Source: Armatimonadota bacterium
Lineage (GTDB): Bacteria > Sysuimicrobiota > Sysuimicrobiia > Sysuimicrobiales > Humicultoraceae
NCBI GenBank assembly: GCA_037443365.1
Contig: JBBIOM010000002.1
Span: forward strand, 57,268 to 121,267
DNA: 64,000 nt
Reading direction: 5' to 3'
In this document: positions 11,074 to 32,263 of the stretch, in pieces
How the letters are laid out: each line of letters begins with the position of its first letter
How positions within the stretch are numbered: the first letter of the stretch is position 1
The notes under the pieces: generated by a model
Told to the model about the DNA's origin: nothing
What the model saw: only the letters and a program-made list of their open reading frames with translations
The model's database searches: none
Translations under genes and position numbers: made by a program

Positions 11074-11079
11074 CCGCGC

Positions 11080-17600: not shown

Positions 17601-18717
17601 TGAACTCGCTGGGCACGCCCACAGGGCACGCCGCGGCGCAGTCACCGCAGCCTGTGCAGCGGAGCGGATCCACGAAGCGGGGGCGCTGCCGTATGGTGGC
17701 GGCGAAGTCCCCGGCGCTCCCCTCCAGACTCTCCAGCTCGGCCAGCGTGTGGATCTCGATGTTAGGATGCAGCCTGACACCCGACAGCTTGGGCGACAGG
17801 ATGCACATCGCGCAGTCGTTCGTGGGGAAGGTCTTGTCGAGCGTGGCCATGCGACCGCCTATGGCTGGGCCGCGCTCGACCAGGTGCACCTTGATGCCAG
17901 CGTCCGCCAGATCGAGCGCAGCCTGGATTCCCGCGATCCCGCCGCCGACCACCACGGCCGCGCCCACCACGCCGTCGCCGGTCTCCTCGGGAGGCCCGGC
18001 CGGTCTTGCCTCCTCGATCGCGGTGGCCACGCGGGCTGCCCCCCCGGGGGCCGGGCCTTCGTCGAGGTCGTCGCGCGCGGCCGCGGGCACTCGCACCATG
18101 CGGTCCAGCAGCTCGATCTGATCGGCCAGCCGCTGGCGGCAGCGCACAAGGATGTGCCGCTGATCATCGGTGAGATCGCCGGCCGTTCCCGCCAGCATCG
18201 CCTCCAGGTAGCCGGCCACCCTGGCGGCGGGAGACCGCAGGTCGTACGTGGCCACCGCCTGCATCTGGGTCAGTCGGGCTCGCACCTGCGCCATGCGCGA
18301 TTCGATGAGGTCCACTAGACCGGCCATTATGGGATACCCGATCTCCCAGTCCAGCGATATCAACCTGCGCAGAACCGGGCCGCTGATGGCCACCAGAACC
18401 GTGGGCTCGACGCTGACCGCAGACATCGTCAGCACAAACGGCGGCACAAGGGCAGACCATCCGAGGCTCTCGCCCGCCCCGAGCACGGACACGACGACCG
18501 ACCTGGGCAGGTCCCCTTCCTGCTCCGGTGTTCGCATCTCCAGGGCCACCCGGCCCGTGTGGATCACGAAGAAGTCGCGGGCCTCGTCCCCTTCAGAGAA
18601 GATGCGCTCCCCCGGCTGGAAGGAGACAACGGTGCCCAGCGAGGCCACCAGGTCTCGGGCCGATGGGCTAAGCCCTGCGAGAAGGGCGCACCGGCCCATG
18701 GCTTCACGCTGGATCAT
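14647..18717 (-). CDS. Giant multi-domain HdrA-type flavo-FeS protein: cNMP-binding-like domain + His-less DHp-like domain + HdrA unit with inserted GltD/NfnB-like NAD(P)H module + start of a second HdrA unit
   Basis: Residues 1-130 are CRP/FNR-type (SFQPGERIFSEGDEA...GRVALEM). Residues ~140-210 are DHp-like (ATYDLRSPAARVAGYLEAML). Residues 251 onward are HdrA (VVVGGGIAGIQAALDLADAG...GGRMATLDKTFPTNDCAMC). Residues ~403-800 are glutamate-synthase-small-subunit-like (CGRVCNHRCEDAC; RVAVVGSGPAGLTAARDL; VLVLGGGNVGIDVA; FAGGD). Then FLQCVGSRD..YCSSVCCMY, followed by a second unit with IGVFVCHCGSNIAG...ALVIGGGVAGLTASL. Confidence 0.8.
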   Translation of the reverse strand: MIQREAMGRCALLAGLSPSARDLVASLGTVVSFQPGERIFSEGDEARDFFVIHTGRVALEMRTPEQEGDLPRSVVVSVLGAGESLGWSALVPPFVLTMSAVSVEPTVLVAISGPVLRRLISLDWEIGYPIMAGLVDLIESRMAQVRARLTQMQAVATYDLRSPAARVAGYLEAMLAGTAGDLTDDQRHILVRCRQRLADQIELLDRMVRVPAAARDDLDEGPAPGGAARVATAIEEARPAGPPEETGDGVVGAAVVVGGGIAGIQAALDLADAGIKVHLVERGPAIGGRMATLDKTFPTNDCAMCILSPKLSGVRLHPNIEIHTLAELESLEGSAGDFAATIRQRPRFVDPLRCTGCGDCAAACPVGVPSEFNAGLAARSAIYRSYAQAVPGAYAIDKRGRAPCRDACPIHQRAQGYVALVAQGRYEEAFRVIQMENPFPGICGRVCNHRCEDACSRSLVDGAVNIAALKRFVADWAYARPGEPPAQVEPAHPERVAVVGSGPAGLTAARDLAVLGYRVTVHEALPVPGGMMRVGIPEHRLPASIVEREVAAIAALGVEIRTSSRVSHVRELFAQGYSAIFLATGTHRARKLPIPGADLPGVLVSTDVLQNARLGQPVSLGRRVLVLGGGNVGIDVARTCVRLGAEVLLACPEARGAMPAHPWEVAAAEEEGVRVYPSTSFVRVVERDGRAAGMECRGVRSMHFDENRRLHLELIEGSEHLIEADTIVFAIGLAPQNEIFSDLPGLVTTPWGALQVDAESQSTGYPGLFAGGDLATGTAYIVDAIAAGRRAAQGIHAYLRGTFLQADPQPQVARLTLEEVEDRLARGQIRPQPRQGVHELPAEVRRASFIEVDEGLTEEEARFEAARCLSCGVCAECLACVQACRREAINHAETEREETLNVGAVILAPGIEPFDAALADAYGAGRFPNVLTGPQFERLLSASGPTQGHVARPSDGAEPKRIAFLQCVGSRDQQNRYCSSVCCMYATKEAILAREHAPGTECTVYYADMRAFGKGFDAYVERASREQIRFVRTRVAALREDAQTRSLHFRVEENGAVREEQADLVVLAVGLTPPKGAAALACAARIALDEHGFAATVPSAPMQASRPGVFVAGGFRGPRDIPDSVTDGSGAAAAAMAIIGSARGTQISAKVYPPEMLLDPEPRIGVFVCHCGSNIAGVVDVAGLAAHAKTLPGVVLAETSLYTCSADTLIRIKEAVAEAHLNRVVVASCTPRTHEPIFRETLREAGLNPYLFEMANIRDQCSWVHRDDPAGATEKAQALITAAVARAARLSPLHKVLVPMRREALVIGGGVAGLTASLNLAEQGFPVTLVERSQTLGGRLRSPLLAWGGGPRPRSC
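14669..14678 (-). repeat. G10 homopolymer (C10 on plus strand) at the frame break inside the HdrA-type gene
   Basis: The ORF-track translations of all three frames cross the same TGGGGGGGGGGAC tract. One extra G, or a -1 slip, joins the two ORFs. Confidence 0.9.
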
Positions 18718-19900
18718 CGGCAGATGTCTCCCCCTGCCCCACCGGCGGCGAATCGCCGGGGGGGAGTTCGACGGCGAGGGCCCGGGGTATCGAGAGCGTG
18801 AAAACCGCGCCGCTTGTCTCTCCTGGAGGCGGGCTCTCTGCCCAGATCTGACCGCGGTGGGCCTCGACGATCCTCTTCACGAGGGACAAACCCAGCCCCA
18901 ACCCCTTCGACTGGGCCATCTGCCCCCTGTAGAACTCGTCGAAGATGCGGGGCAGATCGGACGGCGCTATCCCAGCGCCGTTGTCGCGCACCTGCACCCG
19001 GATCTCATCTCCCCGGTCCAGGGCGGACACGACGACTTCTCCGCCGGAGGGCGTAAACTTCACGGCGTTGTCCAGGAGGTTGGTAATGGCTTCCTGCATG
19101 CGCAGCGGCGCCATCAAGAGCGACGGCATGCCCCGAGGCACCAGCGCCTCCAGGCGCACTCCCTTTGCCCGGGCCGCGGCCGCCACGTTCTCCACGGCCT
19201 TCTCAATGATATCCTGCATGGATGCGACGCCCAGCTCCGCGGAGAAGTCGCCGGTCTCGATCCGGGAGACCCGCAGAAGGCTGTTGATGAGCTCGATCAG
19301 CTCCTGCACACGGATGCTGCACCGCTCCAACATCTCTCGCTGCCGGTCAGCGACCTCCCCGGCGTAGCCGCCCAGCATCACCTGAAGGTAGCTCTCCACG
19401 GCCGCCAGGGGCGCCTTCAGTTCGTGTGACACCATTGCGATGACGAAGCCCAGCTTGGCCCTCGCCTCCTGGAGGCGGCTTCCCACCAGCTGGGCCAGGC
19501 CGCGCATCAGGAGGGCCCCGGCCCGAGGGTCCTCGGCGATCAGTCGTTCCAGCATCTCGCGCTCGAATGCCACGACCGTCGTGGGCTGAATTGCCACGGC
19601 CGACATGGTGCGCGTGTGAGGAGGCACGAGCGCGGACCAGCCGAAGCAGTCGGGGGGACCAAGCACCGCGGCGAATGTGCGCCGCTCGCCCGCCTCGGAC
19701 CTGCCGATCTGCAGGTCCATCTCGAGGGCGACGCGTCCCCGCTCAATGATGCACAGGTGTGTGGCGCCCTCCCCCTCCTCGAAGATCCGCTGCCCGGGCT
19801 CGAACGATCGCTGCTCACCCATAGCCGCCAGGCGGCGCAGAAGCGCCACGGGCAGGTCCTTGAACAGGGACGAGCGCTCCAGGGCCGCCTGGCTGGCCAT
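18704..19900 (-). CDS. Sensor histidine kinase with N-terminal cNMP-binding-like domain (no TM segments seen)
   Basis: CRP/FNR-type N-terminus (SFEPGQRIFEEGEGA...GRVALEM), H-box AMVSHELKAPL (His159), N-box NLLDNAVKF, and G-boxes VRDNGAGI and GLGLGLSLV. Confidence 0.85.
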   Translation of the reverse strand: MASQAALERSSLFKDLPVALLRRLAAMGEQRSFEPGQRIFEEGEGATHLCIIERGRVALEMDLQIGRSEAGERRTFAAVLGPPDCFGWSALVPPHTRTMSAVAIQPTTVVAFEREMLERLIAEDPRAGALLMRGLAQLVGSRLQEARAKLGFVIAMVSHELKAPLAAVESYLQVMLGGYAGEVADRQREMLERCSIRVQELIELINSLLRVSRIETGDFSAELGVASMQDIIEKAVENVAAAARAKGVRLEALVPRGMPSLLMAPLRMQEAITNLLDNAVKFTPSGGEVVVSALDRGDEIRVQVRDNGAGIAPSDLPRIFDEFYRGQMAQSKGLGLGLSLVKRIVEAHRGQIWAESPPPGETSGAVFTLSIPRALAVELPPGDSPPVGQGETSADDPA

Positions 19901-19901
19901 G

Positions 19902-20786
19902 CTACTCCACTCCCGGAGCCGCCAGGCCGCCGGCCTCGAGCACGCGCGGCAGCAGGTGATCCCATCCCATGGCCATCAGGTGGATGCCCTGGCACAGCGG
20001 CCGCAGTTCCCGGATCAGCCCGGCGGCCACGCCCACGCTGGCCTCCTGGCGGTCCTTGGCTGTCTCCATGATCTCGATGAGGCGGCCGGGAACGTGCACG
20101 CCCGGGACATTCCGGTTCATGAACCGGGCCATACCGGCGGACTTCAGCATGATGATGCCTGCCAGTACCGGCTTGCCCACGGGCCGGGCGGCTTCCATGA
20201 AGCGGGCGAAGCCGTCCGGGTCGAAGATGGCCTGGGTCTGGAAGAAGTCGGCGCCGGCCTGAGCCTTCTTCGCCATCTTGAGCAGTTGGGGCTCAACCGG
20301 ATCCGCGCCCGGGCTGACGACCGCGCCCAGGAGGAACTCGGGGGCGCCGTCCAGTTGCTTCCCCGCCATGTCCTGCCCCTGCTCCAGCCCGACCGCGGCG
20401 CGCAGCAGGGAAACCGAGTCCAGGTCGAACACGGGCTTGGCCTGCGGGTGGTCACCAAGCTTCACGTGGTCTCCCGTAAGGCACAGCACGTTCTCGATGC
20501 CCAGCGCCGCCGCGCTCAGGAGATCCGACTGCAGCGCAATCCGGTTTCTGTCGCGGCAGGTGACCTGGAAGATGGGCTCGAGGCCCCGCTCCCGAAGCAT
20601 GTGGCAGAGCACCAGCGAACCCAGGCGCATCACCGAGCTCTGCTGGTCGGTGACGTTGAACGCCTGCACCCGTCCCCGCAGGCGCTCGGCTTCCTGAATG
20701 GCTCCTGCCACGTTGATTCCCTTGGGCGGGGAGGCCTCGGCCGTCACCACGAACCGGCCTCCGGTCAGGGCCTCTCGCAGGGTCAT
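19902..20786 (-). CDS. metF: Methylenetetrahydrofolate reductase, paralogue 1
   Basis: GRFVVTAEASPPKG..., QVTCRDRNRIALQSDLL and LCLTGDH. The ATG overlaps the stop of the receiver gene upstream (ATGA). Confidence 0.85.
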   Translation of the reverse strand: MTLREALTGGRFVVTAEASPPKGINVAGAIQEAERLRGRVQAFNVTDQQSSVMRLGSLVLCHMLRERGLEPIFQVTCRDRNRIALQSDLLSAAALGIENVLCLTGDHVKLGDHPQAKPVFDLDSVSLLRAAVGLEQGQDMAGKQLDGAPEFLLGAVVSPGADPVEPQLLKMAKKAQAGADFFQTQAIFDPDGFARFMEAARPVGKPVLAGIIMLKSAGMARFMNRNVPGVHVPGRLIEIMETAKDRQEASVGVAAGLIRELRPLCQGIHLMAMGWDHLLPRVLEAGGLAAPGVE

Positions 20787-21208
20787 GGCGTCTCAGAGCC
20801 TCCCTCGGACCGGCCGCGGCGTGCCAGCAGCTTCTCCACCCTTTCTAGGAGCAGGCCCGGAGGAGCGGGCTTGTCGAGATAGTCCTCTGCCTCCAGGCTG
20901 AGCCCTGCGCTGACCGGAAGGCCGGACTCCCCGTGGCGCTCGGCGAACGAGGTGAGCATGATGACAGGCACCGAGGAGAGCACCGGGTCGCGCTTCAGCT
21001 CCTCGCAGACCGTGAAGCCGTCCTTGAACGGCATGATCACGTCCAGGATGATCAGGTCGGGCGGATCCTCGCGCGCCAGACGCAGCCCCTCAACGCCATC
21101 CAGCGCCGCGGTCACCCGATAGTTGCGGCTCTCCAGCACCGTCCGGGTGGTCTCGACCAGGTCCGGGTCATCGTCAATGAGCAGAATGCGCTCCTGGGTC
21201 TTAGCCAA
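20783..21208 (-). CDS. Stand-alone receiver (CheY-like) response regulator 2, no output domain
   Basis: ILLIDDDPDL, DLIILDVIMPFKDG, VIMLTS and DYLDKP. The start is proposed at in-frame TTG 21208 (MAKTQERILL), 7-8 nt after a GGAGAGG SD-like site that lies within the last codons of the upstream gene. The longer ORF (to 21310) overlaps receiver 1. Confidence 0.8.
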   Translation of the reverse strand: MAKTQERILLIDDDPDLVETTRTVLESRNYRVTAALDGVEGLRLAREDPPDLIILDVIMPFKDGFTVCEELKRDPVLSSVPVIMLTSFAERHGESGLPVSAGLSLEAEDYLDKPAPPGLLLERVEKLLARRGRSEGGSETP

Positions 21209-21212
21209 GGTC

Positions 21213-21629
21213 CTACACCTCTCCGGGGTTGCCCGATCGCTTGCCGCGCCTGTCCAGCACCTTGCGGACACGATGCAGCAGATCCACCGGCCGCACCGGC
21301 TTCTCGACATAGTCGTCCACGTCCATGGCCAGCCCGGCCTCGAGTTCGTACCTGCGCCGGCTGGCCTCTTCGCCCACGGCAGAGAAGATCACAATCGGAA
21401 TGGTCGCCCAGCGGGGTTTCTCCTTCAGGGCCCGCACCACGGCGTATCCGTCCATCCTGGGCATCATCATGTCCAGGATGATCAGGTCGGGGGCCTCCCG
21501 GCGTATGCACTCGAGCCCCTGCTCGCCGTCGGGGGCGGTCTCGACACTGTAGCCAGCAGCCTCCAGTACCATCCGGACCGCCACGGTGATATCCTGATCG
21601 TCGTCCACCACCAGGATCCGAGGTTGCAT
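21213..21629 (-). CDS. Stand-alone receiver (CheY-like) response regulator 1, no output domain
   Basis: MQPRILVVDDDQDI, DLIILDMMMPRMDG, IVIFSA and DYVEKP. Confidence 0.85.
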   Translation of the reverse strand: MQPRILVVDDDQDITVAVRMVLEAAGYSVETAPDGEQGLECIRREAPDLIILDMMMPRMDGYAVVRALKEKPRWATIPIVIFSAVGEEASRRRYELEAGLAMDVDDYVEKPVRPVDLLHRVRKVLDRRGKRSGNPGEV

Positions 21630-21661
21630 TCAGGCCAGCCCTCCTTCTCACGCCTGTTGCG

Positions 21662-22579
21662 TCATATCAGCGGCCGAGGCAGAAGCCCGGCCCTCTCCGC
21701 CAGAACGGGGACGACCTCTTCCCACCCCACGGCCATGATGTGCACACCCCGCACGCCTGGTATGTCGCGCACGGCGTCAATGATGTCCACCGCGATGGCC
21801 ATTCCCTCGGCCTTGGGATCCGAGGCATCTTCCATGCGCGAGACCACGCCGTCAGGAACGACAATGCCGGACACGTAGTCCCGCATGTAGCGCGCCATAC
21901 CAACCGATTTCAGGGGCACGATTCCGGCCAGGATCGCCGTCTTCTCGTGCAGCCCCCGCGCCCTGACCTGGGCCATCCAGCGCGCGAAGATCTCGAGATC
22001 ATATACGGCCTGCGTCTGTATGAAGCTGGCGCCCGCGCGCACCTTCTTCGCCAGGCGCACCACCCGGTATGGAAGCGGGTCGGCGAACGGGTTGGCCGCG
22101 GCCCCGATGAACATCGAAACGTCGCCGGTGAACTCATCGCCACTCTGGAACCTGCGCGCATCGCGCATGCCGGCCAGCACCTGTATCAGCTGGATCGAGT
22201 CGAGATCGAAGACGTTCTTGGCCCCCGGGTGGTTGCCGAACTGCTGGTGGTCCCCGCTCAGGCACAGGAAGTTGCGCACTCCGGCCCCCACGGCACCCAA
22301 CACGTCCGACTGCAGCGCCAGGCGGTTCCGGTCGCGGCACGTCATCTGCATCACGGGGTCCAGACCCATGCGGCGCAGATGGATCGCGCAGGCCAGGCTG
22401 GACATGCGCACGATCGCGGTCTGGTTGTCGGTCAGATTGATGGCGTCACAGCAGTGCCGGAGGATCTCGGCCTTGCGCTCCACGACGCCCAGGTTCGTGC
22501 CCTTGGGCGGGCCCAGCTCGGCGGTCACAGCGAACCGCCCAGCGGCCAGCACGACCTCCAGGTTGCTGCCCGCGGGCAT
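21662..22579 (-). CDS. metF: Methylenetetrahydrofolate reductase, paralogue 2
   Basis: GRFAVTAELGPPKG, QMTCRDRNRLALQSDVL and LCLSGDH. Confidence 0.85.
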   Translation of the reverse strand: MPAGSNLEVVLAAGRFAVTAELGPPKGTNLGVVERKAEILRHCCDAINLTDNQTAIVRMSSLACAIHLRRMGLDPVMQMTCRDRNRLALQSDVLGAVGAGVRNFLCLSGDHQQFGNHPGAKNVFDLDSIQLIQVLAGMRDARRFQSGDEFTGDVSMFIGAAANPFADPLPYRVVRLAKKVRAGASFIQTQAVYDLEIFARWMAQVRARGLHEKTAILAGIVPLKSVGMARYMRDYVSGIVVPDGVVSRMEDASDPKAEGMAIAVDIIDAVRDIPGVRGVHIMAVGWEEVVPVLAERAGLLPRPLI

Positions 22580-22584
22580 GGCCG

Positions 22585-23262
22585 CTACACCTCCTCCTCG
22601 ACCATCTCGCGCAGGTCAGGCCGCGTGATGCGGCGCGGCCCGCCGGAGTGGCTCGCCTTCCAGTCCCGGGCCGGGATGATCTCCTCGAGCTGGTCCAGGC
22701 GTCCCTGCGCTTCCAGGCGCTCGTGGATCAGAACCCAGGCGCAGGGATTGTCTACCGACAGCTCGCAGTGCCCATCCTGGGGCCCTCCGCAGGGGCCGTT
22801 CAGGAGGCTCTTGGCGCACCTGGCCACCGGACAGATCCCTCCGGTGCGGTGCAGGAGGCAATCACCGCAGGCCATGCACCGCTCACCCCATATCCCAGGG
22901 GCCTCGGTCAGCCCCATGAAGGCGGTGTTGAGCCCAGGCAGCGCGATCACACCTCCGTAGCGCTCCCCTATTCCCTGCACACCCACCCCGCATCCCAGGG
23001 ACAGCACGGCATCGGCCCGGCGCACCGCCTCGCCGACCTGATCCAGGAACTCCCACTCGCACTGCCGCTGAACCACGGCCTCCCCGATCTCGACCTCTGG
23101 GCCCAGCACCGAGCGCAGCGCGGTGGCCACCACGGCGACTTCCTTCTCTCCCCCGGCAAAGCAGACAGTCGTGCACGTTCCGCAGCCGAGCACCAGGAGG
23201 CGGCGGAACCCGCTCACCATCTGCCGGATCTCGTCCAGGGGCTTCTGTTGTGCAACAATCAC
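22585..23262 (-). CDS. metV: MetV (MTHFR C-terminal-domain-like FeS/zinc-ribbon protein), copy 1
   Basis: MIVAQQKPLDEI..LVLGCGTCTTVCFAGGEKEV; CMACGDCLLHRTGGICPVARCAKSLLNGPCGG. Confidence 0.8.
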   Translation of the reverse strand: MIVAQQKPLDEIRQMVSGFRRLLVLGCGTCTTVCFAGGEKEVAVVATALRSVLGPEVEIGEAVVQRQCEWEFLDQVGEAVRRADAVLSLGCGVGVQGIGERYGGVIALPGLNTAFMGLTEAPGIWGERCMACGDCLLHRTGGICPVARCAKSLLNGPCGGPQDGHCELSVDNPCAWVLIHERLEAQGRLDQLEEIIPARDWKASHSGGPRRITRPDLREMVEEEV

Positions 23263-23278
23263 GGCCAGACCGCCTTCC

Positions 23279-24148
23279 CTATACGGCCAGCGCTTGGATC
23301 ACCGGCCGGACCTCCACCAGGTGCCTTCCGAACCCCAAGCGTCGCGGACTCGCTCCCAGCGCGAGCGCGGTCAGTTGAGTGAAGAACACCACCGGGAGGG
23401 GACGCTCGAACCCCGCCCTGGCGGACGTGGCGCCCTGCAGCAGATCCAGGTTGAGCTGGCACAGCGGACAGGCAGTGGCCAAGCAGTCGGCGCCCGCTCG
23501 GTGGGCCTGCTCCAAGATGCGGCCAACCAGATCCGCGGCAAGATCGGGCGCCGTGGCGGCCAGGCTGGCGCCACAGCACCAGGTCCTCCCCTGCCACTCG
23601 ACCACGTCGGCCCCACACGATCCGAGCACGCGCTCCATGATCCTCGGGTTCTCCGCATCGTCTATCCCACCACACCTGGGCACGCGCACGAGCAGGCAGC
23701 CGTAATAGCACGCCACCTTCACTCCTGCCAGAGACCGCCGGACCCGCGCGGAGAGGTCGATCTCGTCCAGGACCGAGAGCAGGTGCCGCACCCGGACCCC
23801 ACCGCCGTAGGCGAGGCCCGCCTGCGCGGCTGCCTGCGCCGCCTCCGCCGAGGCGCCAAGCTCGTGCTCTGCCTGAACCAGCCTGTGGTGACAGGCGGCG
23901 CACGCGGTCAGCACGTCGGTCCCGCGGGCCTGGGCAATCGCTAGGTTGCGGGCGGGCAGCAGGACCGCCAGGTCCGCGTCCACGAAGTGGGCCGAGCTGG
24001 CGCCGCAGCAGTTCCAATCCGGCAGTTCCTTCACCTGCATCCCCAGGGCGCGCAGCGTCTCACGCACGGAATCCAGATAGGGGGAGCCGGTGCTCTGCAA
24101 TGAACAGCCCGGGTACAAGGCGAGCGGCCTGGCCGGCGCATTCTGCAT
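23279..24148 (-). CDS. hdrB: HdrB-like (CCG domains), module 2
   Basis: LALYPGCSL...PDWNCCGAS; ACYYGC...RTWCCGAS...CPLCQ. The start is at internal Met72 (MQNAPARP) of ORF 23279..24361 and overlaps the hdrC stop (TGATG). Confidence 0.8.
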   Translation of the reverse strand: MQNAPARPLALYPGCSLQSTGSPYLDSVRETLRALGMQVKELPDWNCCGASSAHFVDADLAVLLPARNLAIAQARGTDVLTACAACHHRLVQAEHELGASAEAAQAAAQAGLAYGGGVRVRHLLSVLDEIDLSARVRRSLAGVKVACYYGCLLVRVPRCGGIDDAENPRIMERVLGSCGADVVEWQGRTWCCGASLAATAPDLAADLVGRILEQAHRAGADCLATACPLCQLNLDLLQGATSARAGFERPLPVVFFTQLTALALGASPRRLGFGRHLVEVRPVIQALAV

Positions 24149-24720
24149 CAGCGCCCACCCCCCTTGCCGGTCGTCCGGAACAGGCGGCGGACCTCTTTGC
24201 GCCCCCGCACGAGGTGGGGCAGCAGCGCAAGCCGGCGGTGCCGCACCAGCGCCAGGCCCGTGGCCAGGTCCTGCCGGAGGCGTCCCTGCTGCAGGCTGTG
24301 CCCGGCCGAGAGCAGACCCTCGTGGGCCCGACCGAACATCCACACGGTGCGCAGGAACCACCGGTGGAATCCGAGGATGCCCGCCCTGGGGGGAGGCCCT
24401 CCCCTGGCCAGGGAGGCCTGCCGCACCGCGTCCATCACCCGGGCGACGTCAATCCCGTTCGGGCACCGGATGGCGCAGGTCTCGCACGCCACGCACAGGT
24501 AGGGCGCCGCGGCTTCGAGGACACGCTCCCGGAGGCCCAACTGCACCGCCTTCATCAGGCGGCTCGGAAGGATGTCCATCGCATGAGCCAGCGGACAGCT
24601 CCCGGTGCAGACCCCGCACCCGTAGCAGAGCCGCACGCGCTCCCCGCTGGCCGCCTCTATGGCCAGCGGCCAGGAGGAATCCCGCGGGGACGGCTGCGTG
24701 GGCGCCTCATGCTGGGGCAT
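24148..24720 (-). CDS. hdrC: HdrC-like (2x[4Fe-4S]), module 2
   Basis: CYGCGVCTGSCP and CVACETCAIRCPNGIDV. Confidence 0.8.
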   Translation of the reverse strand: MPQHEAPTQPSPRDSSWPLAIEAASGERVRLCYGCGVCTGSCPLAHAMDILPSRLMKAVQLGLRERVLEAAAPYLCVACETCAIRCPNGIDVARVMDAVRQASLARGGPPPRAGILGFHRWFLRTVWMFGRAHEGLLSAGHSLQQGRLRQDLATGLALVRHRRLALLPHLVRGRKEVRRLFRTTGKGGGR

Positions 24721-26527
24721 GCGATGCCACCTTCAGGGAGTCGTGCGGCGCATTGAGAAGCGCGCTCATCCTGTGCCAATCGACCGGGGCCAGCGAGGCA
24801 ACCTGGATTGACTCGGGATCGAGGCCGAGCGTCCCTGCCAGCGCGCGGGCACGGTCCACCATCCTGCGGGCCGAGGCCGGCCCCACCAGGTGCTCACAGC
24901 TCCGATCGTAGCAGCCGCAGAGAAGGACACGCCGCGCCCCGGCAGCCAGCGGCCGCACGCAGTGAATCGGCTCCAGCCGCCCCAGGCAGGGCACCGGGAC
25001 AACCAGCACGGACGCGGGGTAGGACAGGCGCAGCCGTCCCATGGCCCCAAGGGTGGGAACCGCGGAGTTGACGCAGGCAAGCACGACCGTCACGGCCCCG
25101 CCCAGAAAGGGGCCCTGCATCAGCGCGTCGATCTCGGCCAGGAGCCGGCGGTTGGGGCTCTCCGCGACCTGGATCGCTCCGGCAGGACAGGCCGCTGCGC
25201 ACACCCCGCACCCCTGGCATGCTGCCGGCAGCACCCGCATGCTTCCGCCCAGAGCCGTGGTCACGGCCTGGTGAGGGCACAGACGCAGGCATGTCAGGCA
25301 GAAGGCACACTTCTCGGTGTCGATGCACGCACGCCCCGCGATCGCCAGCGTGCCCGGAGCAGCCACGGCGAGCGCGGCCATGGCCGCTGCCTCTCCCTGG
25401 CGTGCCGCCTGGACGGCGGTGTACGGGCCGCGCGCGCCGCCGATCAGGAACACGCCGTTTCGCTCGGTCGCTATGGGCTCCAGGAAGATGCGCTCCCTGG
25501 GTGCCCAACCGCCCTGCCGGGGCGCCACGCCGAGTGCGTCCGCCAGTCTGCGCGCGCCCTGGCGAGTGGCCGCGGCGCCGCCAAGTATCGCATCCACGGT
25601 CTCGGTGACAGGGCCCAGCCCAGGCACGTCGGCGGTGACCACCCATTCGCCGTCAACCTCGCAGACCTGGGGTGGTGCGGCCTCCACGCGGATGAACGTG
25701 ACTCCCTGCCCCCGCGCCTCGGTGTAGAGTTCCTCCAATCCGGGTCCGGCAACTCCCATGTCGCGAAAGAGCACGAGCACGCGGCACCCGCAGTCCCGCA
25801 CCAGGTGCAGGGCGGCCTGCAGCGTTGACTCGGTCTGTGAGGGCCAGGGATCGCCGTCCAGCAGAAAGGCCACCCTCCTGCCGAACGGGAACTCGGGCAG
25901 ACCGGGAGATGCGTCGCCGGCCGCGATCACGGCGCCCACCGTGTGGCGCTCGCTTCCCTCACCGGTCCGGAGCGTGGCCTCGAACTCGCCCGCCTGCCCA
26001 ACAAGGCGCTCGAGCGTTCCCGCGGCCGGCACCACCTCGCAGCCCAGCTCCTCGAGGCGCGCCGCCGCTGCCCCGGAGCCCGGCCCGGTTCCAACCAGCA
26101 GCACCCGCCCCGTGGACGTGATCTCGGAGCAGGCCGCAGGAGGTTGGCCGGCGGCGACGCCGGCCGCGCCCGCGGCCACCATCCTCTGCGCCTTGGCCGT
26201 GGCCTGGTCAGGTCGCGGGTGAACCCATGCACACCCTTCCCTCACATCTACAAGACAGGCACGGTGTCCTGCTACCCCTGCACCTTCGAGCACTTCCGCG
26301 AGCGCCTGCGTCGCGGACGGGATCCCGCATGCCGCCACCACCAGGCCGTCGGATGCGGTCTCGCGAAGCCAGGCAGCGACGCGCATCCGGCCCGGGCCTG
26401 AGCAGAAGTCGTGCGTGATCAGGGCCGAGGCGAATCCTGGGGCCGAGGCGATGCGCTCAGGCGCAATGCGGCAGCACAGCGTACCGCCGCATGTGCATAC
26501 GACCAGGGCCGTCCGCGCGGCGCTCAT
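24707..26527 (-). CDS. HdrA-related protein (N-terminal Cys domain + degenerate Rossmann + 2x[4Fe-4S]) fused to a C-terminal MvhD-like domain
   Basis: ALVVCTCGGTL...LVVAACGIPS..CAWVH parallels VFVCHCGSNI...VVVASCTPR..CSWVH of the giant HdrA. CAFCLTCLRLCP and CQGCGVCAAACP are present. The C-terminus VVLACVNSA...VPVPCLGRL...LLCGCYDRSCEH is MvhD-like. The start is at internal Met30 and overlaps the upstream stop (ATGA). Confidence 0.65.
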   Translation of the reverse strand: MSAARTALVVCTCGGTLCCRIAPERIASAPGFASALITHDFCSGPGRMRVAAWLRETASDGLVVAACGIPSATQALAEVLEGAGVAGHRACLVDVREGCAWVHPRPDQATAKAQRMVAAGAAGVAAGQPPAACSEITSTGRVLLVGTGPGSGAAAARLEELGCEVVPAAGTLERLVGQAGEFEATLRTGEGSERHTVGAVIAAGDASPGLPEFPFGRRVAFLLDGDPWPSQTESTLQAALHLVRDCGCRVLVLFRDMGVAGPGLEELYTEARGQGVTFIRVEAAPPQVCEVDGEWVVTADVPGLGPVTETVDAILGGAAATRQGARRLADALGVAPRQGGWAPRERIFLEPIATERNGVFLIGGARGPYTAVQAARQGEAAAMAALAVAAPGTLAIAGRACIDTEKCAFCLTCLRLCPHQAVTTALGGSMRVLPAACQGCGVCAAACPAGAIQVAESPNRRLLAEIDALMQGPFLGGAVTVVLACVNSAVPTLGAMGRLRLSYPASVLVVPVPCLGRLEPIHCVRPLAAGARRVLLCGCYDRSCEHLVGPASARRMVDRARALAGTLGLDPESIQVASLAPVDWHRMSALLNAPHDSLKVASHAPA

Positions 26528-27702
26528 CCCAGACCCTCCAGAACCCGAAGCGCGGCCCCCGCGGCACGGAGCCCATCCCCGATGGCCTCTGGGATGCTGG
26601 CCGGGCCCCCACACGCGCCGGCCGCCACGATGCCTGGAGCAGAACCCGACGCCGGTCTCTCAACCAGCGGCGGCGCGCCCGCGGCTGCCGCCGCAGCATC
26701 CATGCCCACCGCCAGAACCACCAGATCGAACACCCCCTGGCGCCTTGCGGCGGTGGCGACATCCTCGTATACAAGCATCAGCCCCTCGGGCTCGCCGAGC
26801 ACCTCCGCAGGGATACCGCGCACAAGGCGGATCTCTGGAGGCAGGTCATCGAACAGCCGGGCGACCCCTGGGGCTGCTCGCTGCAGATCCATGTAGAAGA
26901 GCGTGACCTCAAGGCCCGGCATCTCACGCGCCATGCGGCTGGCCAGGCGCAGCACGGTGGGACAGCATACCTGAGAACACCATCCCCTGCCGGCGGCCAG
27001 GTCCCTGGAGCCGACGCAGTGGATCATGGCCACGCGCCGGCGCGCCGGCATCAGGCGCGTCAGGTACGCGAGGCCGTGCTGCCACAGGCCCTTTTCCAGG
27101 TCCATGGTTGTGATCACGCCCGGGTGCCGGCCGTAGCCGAACTGCCCCTTGCGGGCCGCCGGGAACGGCTCGAACCCCGTGGCCAGCACCACCACGTCCG
27201 CGGTCACCAGTTCTTCGCGCTGAGAATCATCCAGCGACATGGCGTCGAAGGGGCATGCTTCACTGCAGACCGCGCATTCCTCGCCCCGGGCGCGCAGACA
27301 CGCCGTGGGGTCGACAACATAAGCCACAGGCAGGGCCTGGGGGTGCGGTTGGGCTATCGCGGAGGCCGGACAAAGTTCAGCGCATCTTCCGCACCCGGTG
27401 CAGCGCGACACGTCCACGCCCCGGGGCCTGTGGGCCAGGCGAACGGCGAATTCGCCCGGCCCCCCTTCAATCCCCAGCACGCGCGTGTCCACGCTCAGCG
27501 TTATCCCGGCATCCGCGTGCACCGCCCTGGAGGCGCGAAAGGCCAGGCATACCCCGCAGAGAGTGCAGTCGGAGTCGGCCTTGCAGGCGTAGCCTGCTGC
27601 CCATCCGCCGACCGAGGGCCCCTGCTCGGCCAGCAGGACGCGAACCCCCCGGGCAGCCAGAGCCTGCGCTGCCGTAAGGCCGGCGGGCCCGGCCCCCACC
27701 AC
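26524..27702 (-). CDS. HdrA-related FAD/FeS protein with a divergent active-site region
   Basis: VGAGPAGLTAAQALAARGVRVLLAE (Rossmann), CTGCGRCAELCP, CAVCSEACP and IHCVGSRD...WCSQVCC. The canonical DKTFPTxDCxxC is replaced by YACKADSDCTLCGVC. The GTG start is uncertain. Confidence 0.7.
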   Translation of the reverse strand: MVGAGPAGLTAAQALAARGVRVLLAEQGPSVGGWAAGYACKADSDCTLCGVCLAFRASRAVHADAGITLSVDTRVLGIEGGPGEFAVRLAHRPRGVDVSRCTGCGRCAELCPASAIAQPHPQALPVAYVVDPTACLRARGEECAVCSEACPFDAMSLDDSQREELVTADVVVLATGFEPFPAARKGQFGYGRHPGVITTMDLEKGLWQHGLAYLTRLMPARRRVAMIHCVGSRDLAAGRGWCSQVCCPTVLRLASRMAREMPGLEVTLFYMDLQRAAPGVARLFDDLPPEIRLVRGIPAEVLGEPEGLMLVYEDVATAARRQGVFDLVVLAVGMDAAAAAAGAPPLVERPASGSAPGIVAAGACGGPASIPEAIGDGLRAAGAALRVLEGLG

Positions 27703-27722
27703 GACCGCGCTGCGTGTGTCGC

Positions 27723-29432
27723 TCAGAACAGTCCCACCACCTTGCCTGTCTTCAAGTCGATGTCCACCCGGACGGCGGCCGGCGTCTTGGGCAGGCCGGG
27801 CATGGTGCGCATCTGCCCGCAGAGCGGGTAGAGGAACCCTGCTCCCACCGAAGCCCGGATGTCCCGCACCGTCACGCGGAAGTTCCTCGGCCGGTTCTTG
27901 AGCGCCGGGTTGTCCGACAGCGACAGGTGCGACTTGGCCATGCAGATCGGGAGCTTGTCATAGCCCAGCTTGGTGTAGAGCTTGAGCTTGGCCTCCGCGG
28001 CCGGCTCGAAGTCCACACCGTCGGCGCCGTAGACCCGGGTGGCGATGGTCTCGATCTTCTCGCGGATCGGCATCTCCAGCGGGTACAGGAACTCCATGGC
28101 GCCTGGGCCTTCGGCGGCCCGGACCACGGCCTTGGCAAGCTCGAGCGCGCCTTCCCCGCCGCGGGCGTGGTGATCGCTCGTGACGGCATCCAGGGCGCCT
28201 GCGGCCAGCGAGGCCTCACGCACCGCCTCGATCTCGCGCGCGGTATCGGTGGGGAAGAGGTTGATGGCCACCACGACGGGCAGGCCGTGCATCCGCATGT
28301 TCTCGATGTGCTTCTGGAGGTTCTCGCAGCCGCGCGTGACCGCCTCGACGTTCTCACTCACGAGCTCAGGCGGAAGCGGCCGGCCCGGGACCACGCGACC
28401 CACGCCTCCGTGCATCTTGAGGGCCCGGATGGTTGCCACCACAACCGCCGCGTTCAGCTTGAGCCCGGAGTAGCGGCACTTGACATTGAGCATCTTCTCG
28501 GCGCCAATATCGGCCCCGAATCCGCTCTCCGTGACCACGTAGTCGGCCACCTTGACCGCGATCTTGTCGGCGACGATGGAGTTGTTGCCGTGGGCGATGT
28601 TGGCAAACGGCCCGGCGTGCACGATGACCGGGGTGTTCTCAACGGTCTGGATCAGCGTGGGCATCAGGGCGTCCTTCAGCAGCACCGCCATGGCACCCGC
28701 CGCCTTGAGGTCCTCGGCGGTCACAGGGTCGCCGTCCTCGTTGGTGCCGATCACGATCCGCCCCAGGCGCGCCCGCAGGTCGTTCAGGTCGCTGGCCAGT
28801 GCCAGGATCGCCATCACCTCGGAGGCCACGGTTATGTCGAAGCCGGTCGCCCGCGGCCGGCCGTCGTCCTTGGTGCCCAGGCCGATGACGATGTTGCGCA
28901 GGGCCCTGTCGCTGATGTCCATCACGCGCGGCCACGTGATCGAGTAGGGGTCGATGCGCAACTCGTTGCCCTGCGAGATGTGGTTGTCAATCATCGCCGC
29001 GAGCAGGTTGTGGGCGACACCGACCGCGTGAATATCCCCTGTGAAGTGGAGGTTGAAGTCCTCCATGGGGACAGCCTGCGAGTAGCCGCCACCGGCGGCG
29101 CCGCCCTTGATGCCGAAGGTTGGCCCCATCGAGGGCTGGCGGAGGGTGTTGATGGTCTTGTGACCGAGCTTGTTGAGCGCCATCCCAAGGCCGATCGCGG
29201 TCGTGGTCTTGCCCTCCCCCAGCGGCGTCGGCGTGATAGCGGTGACCATGACGTACTTGCCGCTCGGACGGGCGTCCAGGCGATCCATCACGTCGAGATG
29301 TACCTTGGCCTTGTACTTCCCGTACATGTCCAGGTCGTCCTCGGTAAGGCCCAGACGCTTCGCGATCTCAAGAACCGGAAGAAGCCTGGCCTCCTGGGCA
29401 ATCTCAAGGTCGCTTCCGATCTTTCTGCTCAT
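27723..29432 (-). CDS. fhs: Formate-tetrahydrofolate ligase
   Basis: TPTPLGEGKTTTAIGL, plus length and overall pattern. The start is at internal Met70 (MSRKIGSDLEIAQE) of ORF 27723..29639 and overlaps the metV stop (ATGA). Confidence 0.95.
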   Translation of the reverse strand: MSRKIGSDLEIAQEARLLPVLEIAKRLGLTEDDLDMYGKYKAKVHLDVMDRLDARPSGKYVMVTAITPTPLGEGKTTTAIGLGMALNKLGHKTINTLRQPSMGPTFGIKGGAAGGGYSQAVPMEDFNLHFTGDIHAVGVAHNLLAAMIDNHISQGNELRIDPYSITWPRVMDISDRALRNIVIGLGTKDDGRPRATGFDITVASEVMAILALASDLNDLRARLGRIVIGTNEDGDPVTAEDLKAAGAMAVLLKDALMPTLIQTVENTPVIVHAGPFANIAHGNNSIVADKIAVKVADYVVTESGFGADIGAEKMLNVKCRYSGLKLNAAVVVATIRALKMHGGVGRVVPGRPLPPELVSENVEAVTRGCENLQKHIENMRMHGLPVVVAINLFPTDTAREIEAVREASLAAGALDAVTSDHHARGGEGALELAKAVVRAAEGPGAMEFLYPLEMPIREKIETIATRVYGADGVDFEPAAEAKLKLYTKLGYDKLPICMAKSHLSLSDNPALKNRPRNFRVTVRDIRASVGAGFLYPLCGQMRTMPGLPKTPAAVRVDIDLKTGKVVGLF

Positions 29433-30118
29433 GCGGTCGCCTCCTCGACGGGTGCTTTGACGTCCTCTCGAACAACCTGCCGCGGCCGTCCGGTCGCGGC
29501 GACTGACCAGTCCTTCGGATCCATGATGACGCGCAGGGACTCCATCTCTCCCAGTGCCTGGAGCCGGTTGTAGATCAGCAGCCAGGCGCAGTCCACCGAA
29601 GCATCCACCTCGCACTTGCCGTCGCGATAACCCCCGCACGGCCCGTTCAGCAATCCCTTGGAGCAGCGCGCTATCGGGCAGATTCCGCCCGTCCGATCAA
29701 GAACGCACTCGCCGCACCCGCGGCAGCGCTCGGCCCACACCCCAGGCTGAAGGGTGATACCCATGAACCTGGTGTCGAGCAGCGGGAACACACGGCGGTG
29801 GGGGAAGGTCTCGGCCATCAACTGAACCCCACACCCGCACCCCATCGAGAACACCGCCTCGGCCGCCTCCACCTGGGGAGCCAGCGGCAGGATGAACTCT
29901 TGATCGCACTGGCGGTGCACCGTGGCCTCGATCGTCTCGACCGGAGCGCCCTGGGCGCGGCGGGCCAGCCGCGCCAGCGAGCTGAGCACGGAGACCTCGC
30001 GCTCGCCCCCGGCGAGGCAGACCGACACGCAGCTGGCGCAGCCGACGACCAGCACCCGCCCGTACGGTGCCATCATCTTGAGGACGGCCTCCAGCGGCTT
30101 CTGCTCGGCAACAATCAT
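29429..30118 (-). CDS. metV: MetV (MTHFR C-terminal-domain-like protein), copy 2, not adjacent to a metF
   Basis: MIVAEQKPLEAV..LVVGCASCVSVCLAGGEREV; CRGCGECVLDRTGGICPIARCSKGLLNGPCGG. Confidence 0.8.
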   Translation of the reverse strand: MIVAEQKPLEAVLKMMAPYGRVLVVGCASCVSVCLAGGEREVSVLSSLARLARRAQGAPVETIEATVHRQCDQEFILPLAPQVEAAEAVFSMGCGCGVQLMAETFPHRRVFPLLDTRFMGITLQPGVWAERCRGCGECVLDRTGGICPIARCSKGLLNGPCGGYRDGKCEVDASVDCAWLLIYNRLQALGEMESLRVIMDPKDWSVAATGRPRQVVREDVKAPVEEATA

Positions 30119-30127
30119 GGCGCCCTC

Positions 30128-31462
30128 CTATCCCGCCCGGAGCGCGGGGGTGGCGGCCAGGTGGGCGAGCACCGGGCCGGCCACGTGGAACGAGCCGGTC
30201 ACACAGACAACATCCTCGGGGGAAGCGGCTTCGAGCGCGCACTCGAGCGCGCCTACCGGGTCCTCCACGATGCGAACGTCGGAAACGCCTGCGCAGAACG
30301 CGAGCGCCACGTCGGCCGGCGGCAGCGCCCGGTCGTCGTCGGCCCTTGTCGCGACCACGACCGAGGCCCTGGGCGCGATGATGCGGGCGATGCCCGACAG
30401 GTCCTTGTTGCCGAGCACCCCGATCACCAGCACGACACGGCGCCCCGAGAAGACCTCGTCCAGCACGCCGCGCAGCGCCCTGAAGGAGACGGCGTTGTGC
30501 GCCACGTCCACTATCAGCGTGGGGCGCCACGGCCGGACCACCTCGATCCGCGCGGGCCAGCGCAGGCCGGCGAGACCTGCCCGCACCGCCTCCTCGCCGA
30601 CCGCAAACCCGGCGCCGGCAAGCCCCTCGGCCGCGCCGATGGCCGTCGCCGCGTTGAGGGCCTGATGCCGCCCGAGAAGCGGTATGGCAAGGTCCCGGTA
30701 GGAGCGCAGCCCTCCGCTGACGGTGACCCTGATCCCCGCCATCGAGGAGCTAAGCGTCCGGTAGCGGATCTCGCGGCCCACCCTGACAAGCGTGGCACCC
30801 CTGCCGGCGGCGGCCTGCTCGATCACCTCTCTGGCCGCCTCCGCCTGCGGAACGGTCACGGCCAGGCCGCCGGGGCGGATGATCCCGGTGTCCTCCTCCG
30901 CGATGCGCCGGAGGCTGTTGCCCAGCAGGTCGGTGTGGTCGTACCCCACCGTGGTGATGACCGAGACGAGCGGGTTCACCACGTTGGTGGCGTCCAGCCG
31001 CCCCCCGATGCCAACCTCCACGACGGCCAGGTCCACGGCCTGCCGCGCGAAGTGCATGAACGCGACCGCGGCCGAGGCGTCAAAGTAGGTCGGAGGCCAG
31101 CCCGGGCCGCCCTGCCCGCGATCGATCGCATCGCGCACCTCGGCCACGAGGAGGGACAGGTCACCCTTCGATATCAGCTCGCCGTTCGTGCGCACACGCT
31201 CCCTGAAGTCCACCAGGTGAGGCTTGGTGTAGAGGCCTACCCGGTGGCCGGCCGCCTGCGCCATCGCGGCGATCATCGCGGCCGTGGAGCCCTTGCCCTT
31301 CGTTCCCGCAACGAGCACCGCGGGGAATCGCTGCTCGGGGTCCCCGAGCAGTTCGCAGAGGCGCCGCATGCGCTCCAGCTTGACGGGCGTGTACGGAGCC
31401 GGCTGAGAGAACCGGCCGGCTATCAGCCCGTTGAGATAGGCGATCGACTCCTCGTAGTTCAT
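30128..31462 (-). CDS. folC: Folylpolyglutamate synthase / dihydrofolate synthase
   Basis: VAGTKGKGSTAAM P-loop of the Mur-ligase family, and overall FolC-like length (444 aa). Confidence 0.85.
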   Translation of the reverse strand: MNYEESIAYLNGLIAGRFSQPAPYTPVKLERMRRLCELLGDPEQRFPAVLVAGTKGKGSTAAMIAAMAQAAGHRVGLYTKPHLVDFRERVRTNGELISKGDLSLLVAEVRDAIDRGQGGPGWPPTYFDASAAVAFMHFARQAVDLAVVEVGIGGRLDATNVVNPLVSVITTVGYDHTDLLGNSLRRIAEEDTGIIRPGGLAVTVPQAEAAREVIEQAAAGRGATLVRVGREIRYRTLSSSMAGIRVTVSGGLRSYRDLAIPLLGRHQALNAATAIGAAEGLAGAGFAVGEEAVRAGLAGLRWPARIEVVRPWRPTLIVDVAHNAVSFRALRGVLDEVFSGRRVVLVIGVLGNKDLSGIARIIAPRASVVVATRADDDRALPPADVALAFCAGVSDVRIVEDPVGALECALEAASPEDVVCVTGSFHVAGPVLAHLAATPALRAG

Positions 31463-31477
31463 CCCGGCTCCCGGCCG

Positions 31478-32263
31478 CTAGCCAGTCCGCACCTGTAGGT
31501 AGTTGTCGCAGTAGATCTCCCGGTTGAGGAGCACGTTGGCGGTCCGCAGCGCATCCATCAGCTCCTGATCGAGCGGGTCCAGGATGGCTGCGTCCAGACC
31601 CATGGCCATGGCCATCGTCAGGAAAGTGCGATTGACCAGGCCGCGGTTGGGCGCGCCCTGGGAGACGTTGCTCAACCCGACGATGATGTGCGGGGTGGGC
31701 TCGCACAGTGACAGGAACGACGGGATCGCCCGCAGGGCTTCAGGGCCCTGCGCCTGTGCGGCGTTCACCGGCAGCACGATCGGGTCCAGGTACAGCCGAT
31801 CGGTCGGCAGGCCCGCCTCCATGGCCCGCGCAACGATGTTGAGCGCGATCTCGGCGCGCGCCTGCGCGTTGCGCGGGATGCCGCGCTCGTCAATCGTGAG
31901 GCCTATCAACCCGGCGTTGTGCTCCACCGCCAGCGGCAGCAGCGCGTCGAGCTTCTCCGCCGCGCCTGTCGTGGAGTTGATGATGGCGGGACGCCGGCAC
32001 GCGCGCAGCCCCGCGGCGATCACCGCCGGCTTGGGGCTGTCGAGCGAGAGCGTGGCATCCACGGCGTCCTGGACGGTCTCCACCAGCCAGGTCATCACCT
32101 CTGCCGGGTCCTCGCCCGTGGGCCCGGTGTTCAGGTCCAGGGCGTTGGCCCCGGCGCTCACCTGCCTCCTGGCCAGGTCGGCGATCGCGGCCGTGTCGCG
32201 CTCGCGTATCGCGCGGGCCACCGATCGAAACATCCCGTTGATCCGCTCACCCACGATGTACAT
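31478..32263 (-). CDS. acsE: Methyl-THF:corrinoid/iron-sulfur protein methyltransferase
   Basis: MYIVGERINGMFRSV..., GANALDLNTGP and the pterin-binding-domain pattern, in acs-cluster context. Confidence 0.85.
   Translation of the reverse strand: MYIVGERINGMFRSVARAIRERDTAAIADLARRQVSAGANALDLNTGPTGEDPAEVMTWLVETVQDAVDATLSLDSPKPAVIAAGLRACRRPAIINSTTGAAEKLDALLPLAVEHNAGLIGLTIDERGIPRNAQARAEIALNIVARAMEAGLPTDRLYLDPIVLPVNAAQAQGPEALRAIPSFLSLCEPTPHIIVGLSNVSQGAPNRGLVNRTFLTMAMAMGLDAAILDPLDQELMDALRTANVLLNREIYCDNYLQVRTG

Follow-up and report, generated by a model that had tools for sequence, protein, structure and literature searches.

An Hdr-type (type IV) methylene-tetrahydrofolate (methylene-THF) reductase, MetFV-HdrCBA-MvhD, is known from Sporomusa ovata (Kremp et al. 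2022; PMC9430772). Its HdrA, of 942 aa, carries an extra thioredoxin reductase (TrxR)-like unit without GltD, and pull-down experiments show that HdrA, HdrB, MvhD, MetV, and MetF interact (PMC9430772). In the MetFV-HdrABC-MvhD enzyme of Moorella thermoacetica (Mock et al. 2014, as reported in PMC9430772 and PMC9012536), HdrA has 1487 aa and the extra TrxR unit is interrupted by GltD (PMC9430772); HdrL of Desulfobacterium autotrophicum (PMC2702500) is listed with this Moorella type. Purification of the Hdr-type enzyme as an intact complex has yet to be achieved, and the identity of the second electron acceptor or donor has not been established (PMC9430772). The energy coupling of methylene-THF reduction is a long-standing question of the Wood-Ljungdahl pathway. 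Here, we describe four genes (P1, P2, HdrC, and HdrB; module 2) at 27702..23279 on the minus strand of a 64,000-nt stretch of DNA from a CO2-fixing subsurface bacterium of the Armatimonadota (contig JBBIOM010000002.1; GC content, ~69%), which is referred to as the window. Judged by the domains and folds observed, the conservation of its motifs, the coupling of its genes, and its synteny and distribution, module 2 is probably an Hdr-type electron transfer module, presumably a bifurcating one, that serves the adjacent MetV-MetF and in which HdrA is split over P1 and P2. Another Hdr-type set in the same window is referred to as module 1.

A division of HdrA into two unlike units has also been described for the tandem or fused “heterodimeric” HdrA proteins of anaerobic methanotrophic (ANME) archaea (HdrA5/6, HdrA12/13, HdrA3, and HdrA4; Chadwick et al. 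2022; PMC9012536). In the passages of that paper on tandem HdrA, Cys197 is a cluster ligand that is donated to the partner subunit; the shared cluster of methanogen HdrA is held by Cys197 together with three Cys from the N-terminal domain of the partner. The same passages present the HdrA of the Moorella methylene-THF reductase as two HdrA units fused together, between which Cys197 and the N-terminal domain are distributed in a complementary fashion, and they describe the C-terminal ferredoxin domain of the ANME pairs as likewise split in a complementary way, with a predicted break of the two-fold symmetry of the HdrA dimer.

An HdrA divided between two genes

The features on which the comparison rests are as follows.

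26524..27702, minus strand: P1, HdrA flavin core of the CKA-motif subfamily, 392 aa (phmmer match to residues 149-561 of HdrA in the PDB, E=2e-54)
27547..27609, minus strand: CKA-loop motif GGWAAGYACKADSDCTLCGVC, P1 residues 32-52
24707..26527, minus strand: P2, HdrA-like protein fused to MvhD, 606 aa (aligned with HdrA 14-197 and 429-656, then with MvhD)
26132..26527, minus strand: N-terminal HdrA domain of P2 (Cys11, 13, 42, and 66 align with the canonical cluster cysteines)
25163..25330, minus strand: C-terminal ferredoxin domain of P2, two CxxCxxCxxxCP motifs (Fer4 at residues 400-458)
24740..25087, minus strand: MvhD [2Fe-2S] domain of P2 (PF02662 FlpD, E=2e-22, residues 481-596)
24148..24720, minus strand: HdrC, 2x[4Fe-4S] (Fer4_17/Fer4_8; match to HdrC in the PDB, E=9e-14)
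23279..24148, minus strand: HdrB, two complete CCG domains (PF02754 in two stretches; match to HdrB in the PDB, E=2e-38)
22585..23262, minus strand: MetV (PF12225, E=6e-36), 16 nt downstream of HdrB
21662..22579, minus strand: MetF (subtype 1), catalytic subunit of methylene-THF reductase (PF02219, E=5e-36), 5 nt after MetV
27723..29639, minus strand: fhs, formate-THF ligase (PF01268, E=3e-259), directly upstream of P1
73..1499, plus strand: third hdrC-hdrB pair, followed by a [NiFe] hydrogenase large subunit and a hydrogenase maturation protease (to 3556)

The region of HdrA matched by P1 comprises the flavin adenine dinucleotide (FAD)-binding TrxR domain and the inserted 2x[4Fe-4S] ferredoxin domain; P1 also carries the CVGSRD..C..CC cluster motif. 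Aligned with solved HdrA, it has neither the N-terminal domain nor the C-terminal ferredoxin domain. Across 52 aligned family members, the three signatures of FAD binding (GxGxxG, an acidic residue at the end of beta2, and GG) are invariant or nearly so, as are C229, C242, and C246. The AlphaFold2 (AF2) models of both proteins were built on family alignments. That of P1 has a mean local confidence (pLDDT) of 90.1 and a predicted TM score (pTM) of 0.88, and its top PDB matches are HdrA (Foldseek TMq, 0.85).

In P2, MvhD is joined to the N-terminal cluster domain, a TrxR-like body whose dinucleotide motifs are eroded, and the C-terminal 2x[4Fe-4S] ferredoxin domain. The alignment of P2 to HdrA skips ~230 HdrA residues and leaves no counterpart for the region around Cys197, for the inserted ferredoxin domain, or for the CVGSRD..CC cluster motif; the region of Glu356 and Lys409 has no equivalent in this alignment either. 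The eight Cys of the C-terminal ferredoxin domain are invariant among 48 family members. The AF2 model (pLDDT, 88.2; pTM, 0.81) has full-length HdrA (E=5e-32) and MvhD as its best Foldseek matches, with the MvhD domain superposing on 5odc_D at a root mean square deviation of 1.6 Å over 116 residues (TMt, 0.78). These fold matches and the confident model indicate that P2 is, as modeled, a folded HdrA-like protein and not a remnant. The flavin motif is eroded throughout the P2 family: the second Gly is kept in 33/48 members, the acidic beta2 end is unconserved, and GG is absent. P2 is thus probably flavin-free. Neither protein reaches the NCBIfam HdrA/HdrA2 equivalog cut-off of 1100 bits (P1, 215; P2, 203), and each covers part of that model. 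HdrB and the 190-aa soluble-type HdrC of module 2 align over their full lengths with methanogen HdrB and HdrC, with every cluster cysteine in place.

Together, P1 and P2 hold, once each, the functional elements of one half-dimer of methanogen HdrA: an intact FAD site, the HdrBC-facing cluster, the inserted ferredoxin, the N-terminal cluster domain and the Cys197-type ligand, the C-terminal ferredoxin, and MvhD. The division follows the heterodimeric pattern, in that sequence alignment finds the Cys197 equivalent but no N-terminal domain in P1 and the reverse in P2. Because every element is present exactly once, a heterodimer with a single flavin is proposed, and an asymmetric P1-P2 pair most likely stands in place of the HdrA homodimer of methanogens. 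In architecture, these proteins correspond to split or fused forms of tandem, heterodimeric HdrA as it is known from PMC9430772 and from the tandem-HdrA passages of PMC9012536. However, those passages deal with archaeal genomes, their Moorella comparison extends only to the two-unit fusion, and a four-Cys CKA loop and an eroded partner flavin site are no part of the description they give.

The closest likeness is to S. ovata, where MetV and MetF likewise adjoin HdrC, HdrB, MvhD, and HdrA, and where a GltD-less flavin unit precedes an HdrA body without the inserted ferredoxin, a unit order that matches P1 followed by P2. In the window, however, each unit has a gene of its own, and the second unit carries MvhD as a fusion. 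Furthermore, P1 keeps the inserted 2x[4Fe-4S] ferredoxin, whereas the extra unit of S. ovata is described as TrxR-like only. The Moorella/HdrL type shares the enzyme context but has an NAD(P)H- and FAD-binding GltD/NfnB-like insert in unit 1 along with the canonical DKTFPTNDCxxC, neither of which is found in module 2. Methanogen HdrABC-MvhAGD (PDB 5ODC, 8RVU, and 7BKB) has the folds of all parts in common with module 2; its HdrA, in contrast, is a single polypeptide forming a homodimer with two FAD, and its substrate is CoM-S-S-CoB.

The gross layout also resembles that of QmoAB(C) from sulfate reducers (PMC3333476), in which a short HdrA-like flavoprotein (QmoA) is paired with a longer HdrA-like subunit that includes an MvhD domain (QmoB), and we therefore considered whether the pair might be QmoAB-like and linked to the quinone pool or to adenosine 5'-phosphosulfate (APS) reductase. 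The likeness appears to be architectural. The qmoC model scored 58 bits against a cut-off of 300, matching the HdrC-like part only, so that no QmoC was found; there is no apr or sat among the annotated genes of the window; and a separate HdrB accompanies the separate HdrC. In addition, both Qmo subunits contain FAD (PMC3333476), which is at odds with the eroded flavin motifs of the P2 family. We regard such a role as highly improbable.

The start of P1 is the sole uncertain point in the four open reading frames (ORFs). The called GTG leaves two residues only before the glycines of GxGxxG (window 27699-27726, minus strand) and lies 20 nt from the fhs stop. An in-frame upstream extension (..SDTRSAV|VVGAG) reaches back to that stop, and a parallel extension (..THARTAL|VVGAG) occurs at 9974-10003 in locus L001, one of the closest relatives. 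Thus, the true start may lie upstream, possibly at a CTG overlapping the fhs TGA.

The CKA-motif subfamily

The sequence-only reading of the window treated the cysteine motif of P1 as a rewritten HdrA active-site motif. Aligned with the canonical GGRMAQLDKTFPTNDCSIC, the corresponding GGWAAGYACKADSDCTLCGVC of P1 keeps C46 and C49 as the equivalents of HdrA Cys194 and Cys197, and K41 as the canonical Lys. Canonical D186 is replaced by C40, two residues are deleted, and C52 is extra. Among the 52 aligned family members, C40, K41, A42, C46, C49, and C52 are invariant or nearly so.

The back-translated motif GGxAxxxxCKAxxxCxxCxxC was scanned over one genome per GTDB species and was found in at least 120 loci or species genomes under about ten phylum labels. 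The matches listed all lie in HdrA-like frames, and nearly all of the uncut frames also have the CVGSR motif. The record titles among them include Desulfobacterota (with the cultivated Desulfosarcina variabilis), Atribacterota, Actinomycetota, Dehalococcoidia, Anaerolineales, Bacillota, Spirochaetota, Planctomycetota, Kiritimatiellae, Latescibacterota, and Armatimonadota; “Myxococcota” and “Pseudomonadota” labels stem from legacy titles of the type “Deltaproteobacteria bacterium” or “Proteobacteria bacterium” and are read as unclassified Desulfobacterota-like metagenome-assembled genomes (MAGs). A protein search gave a small close clade at 58-78% identity, followed by a fall to ~37% with the motif still carried.

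In a tree of 106 sequences, the 81 motif-bearing proteins, P1 included, fall on one side of a branch with an SH-aLRT support of 99. Unit 1 of the HdrL-type protein in the window, a unit 2 from an HdrL, and the P2 core group with canonical HdrA; the exact positions of the P2 core and of HdrL unit 2 are not interpreted because their branches are long. By these sequence criteria, the motif marks a large, separately branching HdrA subfamily (GGxAxxxxCK[A/G]xxxCxxCxxC plus CVGSR), and module 2 is an ordinary member of a widespread, little-studied family rather than a one-off invention. The motif is therefore a subfamily hallmark and not a rewrite peculiar to this genome. Nor is P1 a recent paralogue of unit 1 of module 1, since that unit groups with canonical HdrA and the other copies are also distant from each other (see below). 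The possibility had also been raised that these proteins belong to an already characterized non-Hdr family, such as Flx or Qmo, with conserved versions of the motifs. A family with the conserved motif does exist, but it is Hdr-type and biochemically uncharacterized.

This distribution also bears on whether module 2 could be a decaying, nonfunctional duplicate of module 1. The degenerate Rossmann motif of P2 and the very short N terminus of P1 at its called start would be expected of a decaying copy. However, the same “degenerate” features are kept across the roughly ten phylum labels, and the tree does not derive P1 from module 1. Furthermore, no cluster cysteine has been lost, the reading frames are uninterrupted, the genes are translationally coupled, and both AF2 models are of high confidence. 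Decay is thus extremely improbable.

Searched with a hidden Markov model, no more than 17 of the 73 P2-like partners showed the HdrA N-terminal domain, and several of these copies are devoid of cysteines. Since this domain is seldom found in the partner whereas the four Cys of the loop are invariant, the alignments suggest that the P1 loop can ligate a cluster by itself. Taken together, these results permit a broader and more tentative reading, in which the C-K-[A/G]-x3-C-x2-C-x2-C loop binds a [4Fe-4S] cluster through four cysteines of the loop itself and defines a distinct, very widespread class of HdrA at the core of an NAD(P)H-independent methylene-THF reductase. We hold this to be possible but rather less than probable. 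Were it correct, the second copy of HdrA, without flavin and in most lineages without the N-terminal cluster domain, would survive only as a wire for the clusters of the C-terminal ferredoxin and MvhD, and the reductase, possibly driven by H2 or formate, would reduce ferredoxin in Wood-Ljungdahl bacteria of about ten phylum labels. The family raises the questions of whether bifurcation is possible with a single flavin per heterodimer, what role the extra cysteines have, and what donates electrons to MetVF without NAD(P)H; it includes at least one cultivated organism, D. variabilis (str. Montpellier, locus L059), mentioned above.

Conserved neighborhood and proposed electron path

Within module 2, P1 and P2 overlap in ATGA, P2 and HdrC overlap by 14 nt, and HdrC and HdrB meet in TGATG; to judge from these junctions, the genes are translationally coupled. 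The module lies between fhs and metV-metF, and the metF and metV genes are on the same strand as, and adjoin, its hdr and mvhD genes.

Other loci were examined as 8-kb blocks by tblastn with the window proteins, so that the resulting counts are minimum values. In 65 of 68 listed loci with at least 2 kb of room, P1 is followed at once, on the same strand, by a P2-like gene. As judged by tblastn query coverage, MvhD is fused to P2 in 50 listed loci and is the next gene in 17. Where there was room on both sides, metF or metV was in the block at 16 of 20 listed loci. Common gene orders are metV-metF-P1-P2::MvhD-hdrC and (fhs-)P1-P2-mvhD-metV-metF, and fhs-P1-P2::MvhD-hdrC-hdrB-metV-metF is common to the closest relatives (L001, L065, and L117), of which L065 and L117 are labeled Armatimonadota. 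Both MetF subtypes present in the window (see below) are found beside P1/P2 pairs elsewhere, and they occur together within one 8-kb block in L043, L061, L104, L109, and L118, all from MAGs labeled Deltaproteobacteria. The two genes are also naturally joined: there are P1+P2 fusions of 737-890 aa (for example, L090 from Kiritimatiellae, 890 aa, and L106 from “Ca. Acetocimmeria,” 781 aa) and, in Bacillota, P1+P2+MvhD fusions of 907-983 aa with the CKG variant of the motif (P0147-P0154). No named Sporomusa protein was among the matches obtained with one of the natural Bacillota fusions.

The linkage to metVF bears on whether module 2 could instead be a general soluble HdrABC-like reductase for a thiol/disulfide or other acceptor, merely housed in the Wood-Ljungdahl cluster and delivering no electrons to MetVF. 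The two CCG domains that make up the disulfide-reducing site of methanogens are both complete in HdrB, and P1-P2-HdrC occurs without metVF beside a PocR sensor gene in some Desulfobacterales, both of which would fit a role of this kind. However, the association with metVF is tight across phyla (the 16 of 20 loci above), HdrB and metV are 16 nt apart in this lineage, and the S. ovata pull-downs join Hdr, MvhD, and MetVF proteins (PMC9430772). A general reductase is thus unlikely.

In the Desulfobacterales concerned, P1-P2::MvhD-hdrC has no metVF nearby, and a small gene with a PocR domain (~170 aa) directly precedes it (L092, 3704-4237; L089, 4699-5208; L093, 6844-7356). These PocR-linked clusters suggest a second use for the same module.

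If module 2 supplies MetVF as we propose, P1 would be the catalytic subunit, with one FAD, a cluster toward HdrC and HdrB, the inserted ferredoxin domain as a low-potential exit, and the CKA loop. P2 would be a structurally intact, HdrA-like scaffold that contributes the cluster domain at its N terminus, the two-cluster ferredoxin domain near its C terminus, and the [2Fe-2S] of MvhD as the entry point. Because a module for NAD(P)H binding is absent, electrons would have to come either from a donor that docks on MvhD or from ferredoxin. In the first step, the donor would dock at MvhD; this could be the Mvh/Vhu-type hydrogenase encoded 20 kb away or a different dehydrogenase that binds MvhD. The C-terminal clusters of P2 would then pass electrons to the FAD of P1. 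From there, the high-potential branch would run through the CVGSRD cluster of P1 to HdrC, HdrB, MetV, MetF, and finally methylene-THF, and the low-potential branch would run through the cluster at the CKA loop and N-terminal domain to the inserted ferredoxin domain of P1 and on to ferredoxin.

Several points weigh against this assignment. In four of the 20 well-covered listed loci, metVF was not seen beside P1-P2, which in some of these loci follows a PocR-domain gene, and the module is therefore not exclusively a partner of MetVF. The published signature of bifurcating HdrA is Glu356 plus Lys409 in M. thermolithotrophicus numbering (PMC9430772). In P1, it is half present: E203 is conserved, but the Lys409 equivalent is Arg252 (window 26947-26949), in contrast to the Lys of S. 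ovata. Arg occupies this position in 97 of 101 CKA-motif HdrA proteins, and the four with Lys are all from Bacillota. The large subunit of the window hydrogenase is VhuA/MvhA-like (395 bits to VhuA, which is below the cut-off), and the hydrogenase adjoins its own HdrCB and may not serve module 2. The formation of the heterodimer and the loss of flavin from P2 are inferred, as are the electron path, the donor, and bifurcation. The most apt description of module 2 is that of a relative of the Sporomusa-type HdrA that is split, carries a fused MvhD, and has kept the ferredoxin of unit 1, a likeness drawn by analogy with the published domain description. Finally, no RNA runs with this sequence were found, and the only four DNA runs come from one subsurface metagenome study.

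Module 1 and the surrounding genes

Module 1 consists of the following parts.

ORFs of 1356 aa and 368 aa, minus strand: HdrA megaprotein of HdrL type, with a GltD-like insert (Fer4_20, Pyr_redox_2)
13087..13557, minus strand: MvhD, separate (domain annotation)
11723..13321, minus strand: HdrC-HdrB, fused (domain annotation)

The megaprotein contains a sensor stub and unit 1, whose HdrA core bears the canonical GGRMATLDKTFPTNDCAMC motif and is interrupted by the GltD/NfnB-like block; by its sequence, it is a Moorella/HdrL-type HdrA. P1 corresponds to its unit 1, and P2 corresponds to its unit 2. Between the two modules, identity is 26-42% for HdrC, HdrB, and MvhD, and the third HdrCB (73..1499) is equally distant. 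These values indicate that the copies of the module are old. The domain search found no Fer4_20 and no second Pyr_redox_2 block in P1 or P2, whereas module 1 has both. Without the GltD/NfnB-like insert, module 2 would be unable to oxidize NAD(P)H itself, whereas module 1 would be able to.

What the sequence-only reading had set out at the level of sequence is all borne out by the ORFs and by the domain annotation and search: there is a second Hdr-type module with the parts list of module 1 and different fusion boundaries, in which P1 is without a GltD-like insert, P2 is fused to MvhD, and HdrC and HdrB are separate. The CKA-loop sequence of P1 and the degenerate Rossmann sequence of P2, LLVGTGPGSGAAAARL, are both present, and the third hdrCB pair beside the hydrogenase is real. 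Its proposal that the two modules have different electron donors is plausible, since module 2 lacks the insert. That they serve the same metFV genes does not necessarily follow, because the cluster has two metF and two metV. The two MetF copies (19902..20786, MetF2, and 21662..22579) share 43% identity and belong to two different subtypes; between the MetV copies, identity is 48%.

These duplicates also enter into the question of whether the P1/P2 pair, the HdrL megaprotein, MvhD, HdrCB, and the MetF and MetV copies form one multiflavin super-complex, with NAD(P)H entering at HdrL and P1 acting as a second bifurcation or exit point. In several loci, an HdrL-type gene and P1/P2 flank the same metVF (L002/L003, L010, L056, L031, L054, L081, and L111), and some of these operons show just a single MvhD or a single HdrC. 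In the window, modules 1 and 2 are separated by a phosphorelay, with a sensor stub on HdrL. However, the window has full duplicate sets (two each of MvhD, HdrCB, MetF, and MetV), which fit two separate assemblies, and many lineages have P1/P2 with metVF and no HdrL in view, as far as the 8-kb blocks reach. A single super-complex is conceivable but, on balance, doubtful.

Pairs of an HdrL-type gene and P1/P2 around one metVF recur in Desulfobacterota, Dehalococcoidales, and Atribacterota, so this genome is not alone in having two modules laid out in this way. In L010 (Dehalococcoidales) and L056 (Atribacterota), the order is P1-P2-(mvhD)-metV-metF-hdrC-HdrL(GltD), with one metVF; one mvhD is visible in L010 and none is visible in L056. 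The presence of both HdrA types with a single metVF in these operons favors the view that the two types can work within one complex.

Both modules of the window lie within a single, complete Wood-Ljungdahl supercluster on the minus strand (5015..43047). It begins with cooC, carbon monoxide dehydrogenase (CODH), acetyl-CoA synthase (ACS), AcsC, RACo, a CooC-like gene, AcsD, and AcsE and continues with folC, the second metV, fhs, P1-P2-HdrC-HdrB, metV, and metF. These are followed by two receiver genes, the second metF, a histidine kinase, and the giant HdrA with its GltD insert and then by mvhD, the fused hdrCB, a cyclohydrolase-like gene with an FTCD_C domain, folD, and NuoE-like and NuoF-like genes. 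The locus thus sets an NAD(P)H-linked module of Moorella type beside a GltD-less module with a complete ferredoxin arm, each with its own MvhD and HdrCB and near its own MetF. For the window alone, these results are mostly a clarification of a feature that is real.

The remainder of the hydrogenase operon (73-3556, plus strand) extends past the start of the window. The 1356-aa and 368-aa ORFs of the HdrL-type gene overlap by a few bases (window 14647-14680, minus strand), and the orthologue in L001 is a single 1723-aa gene, consistent with a frame break in the window.

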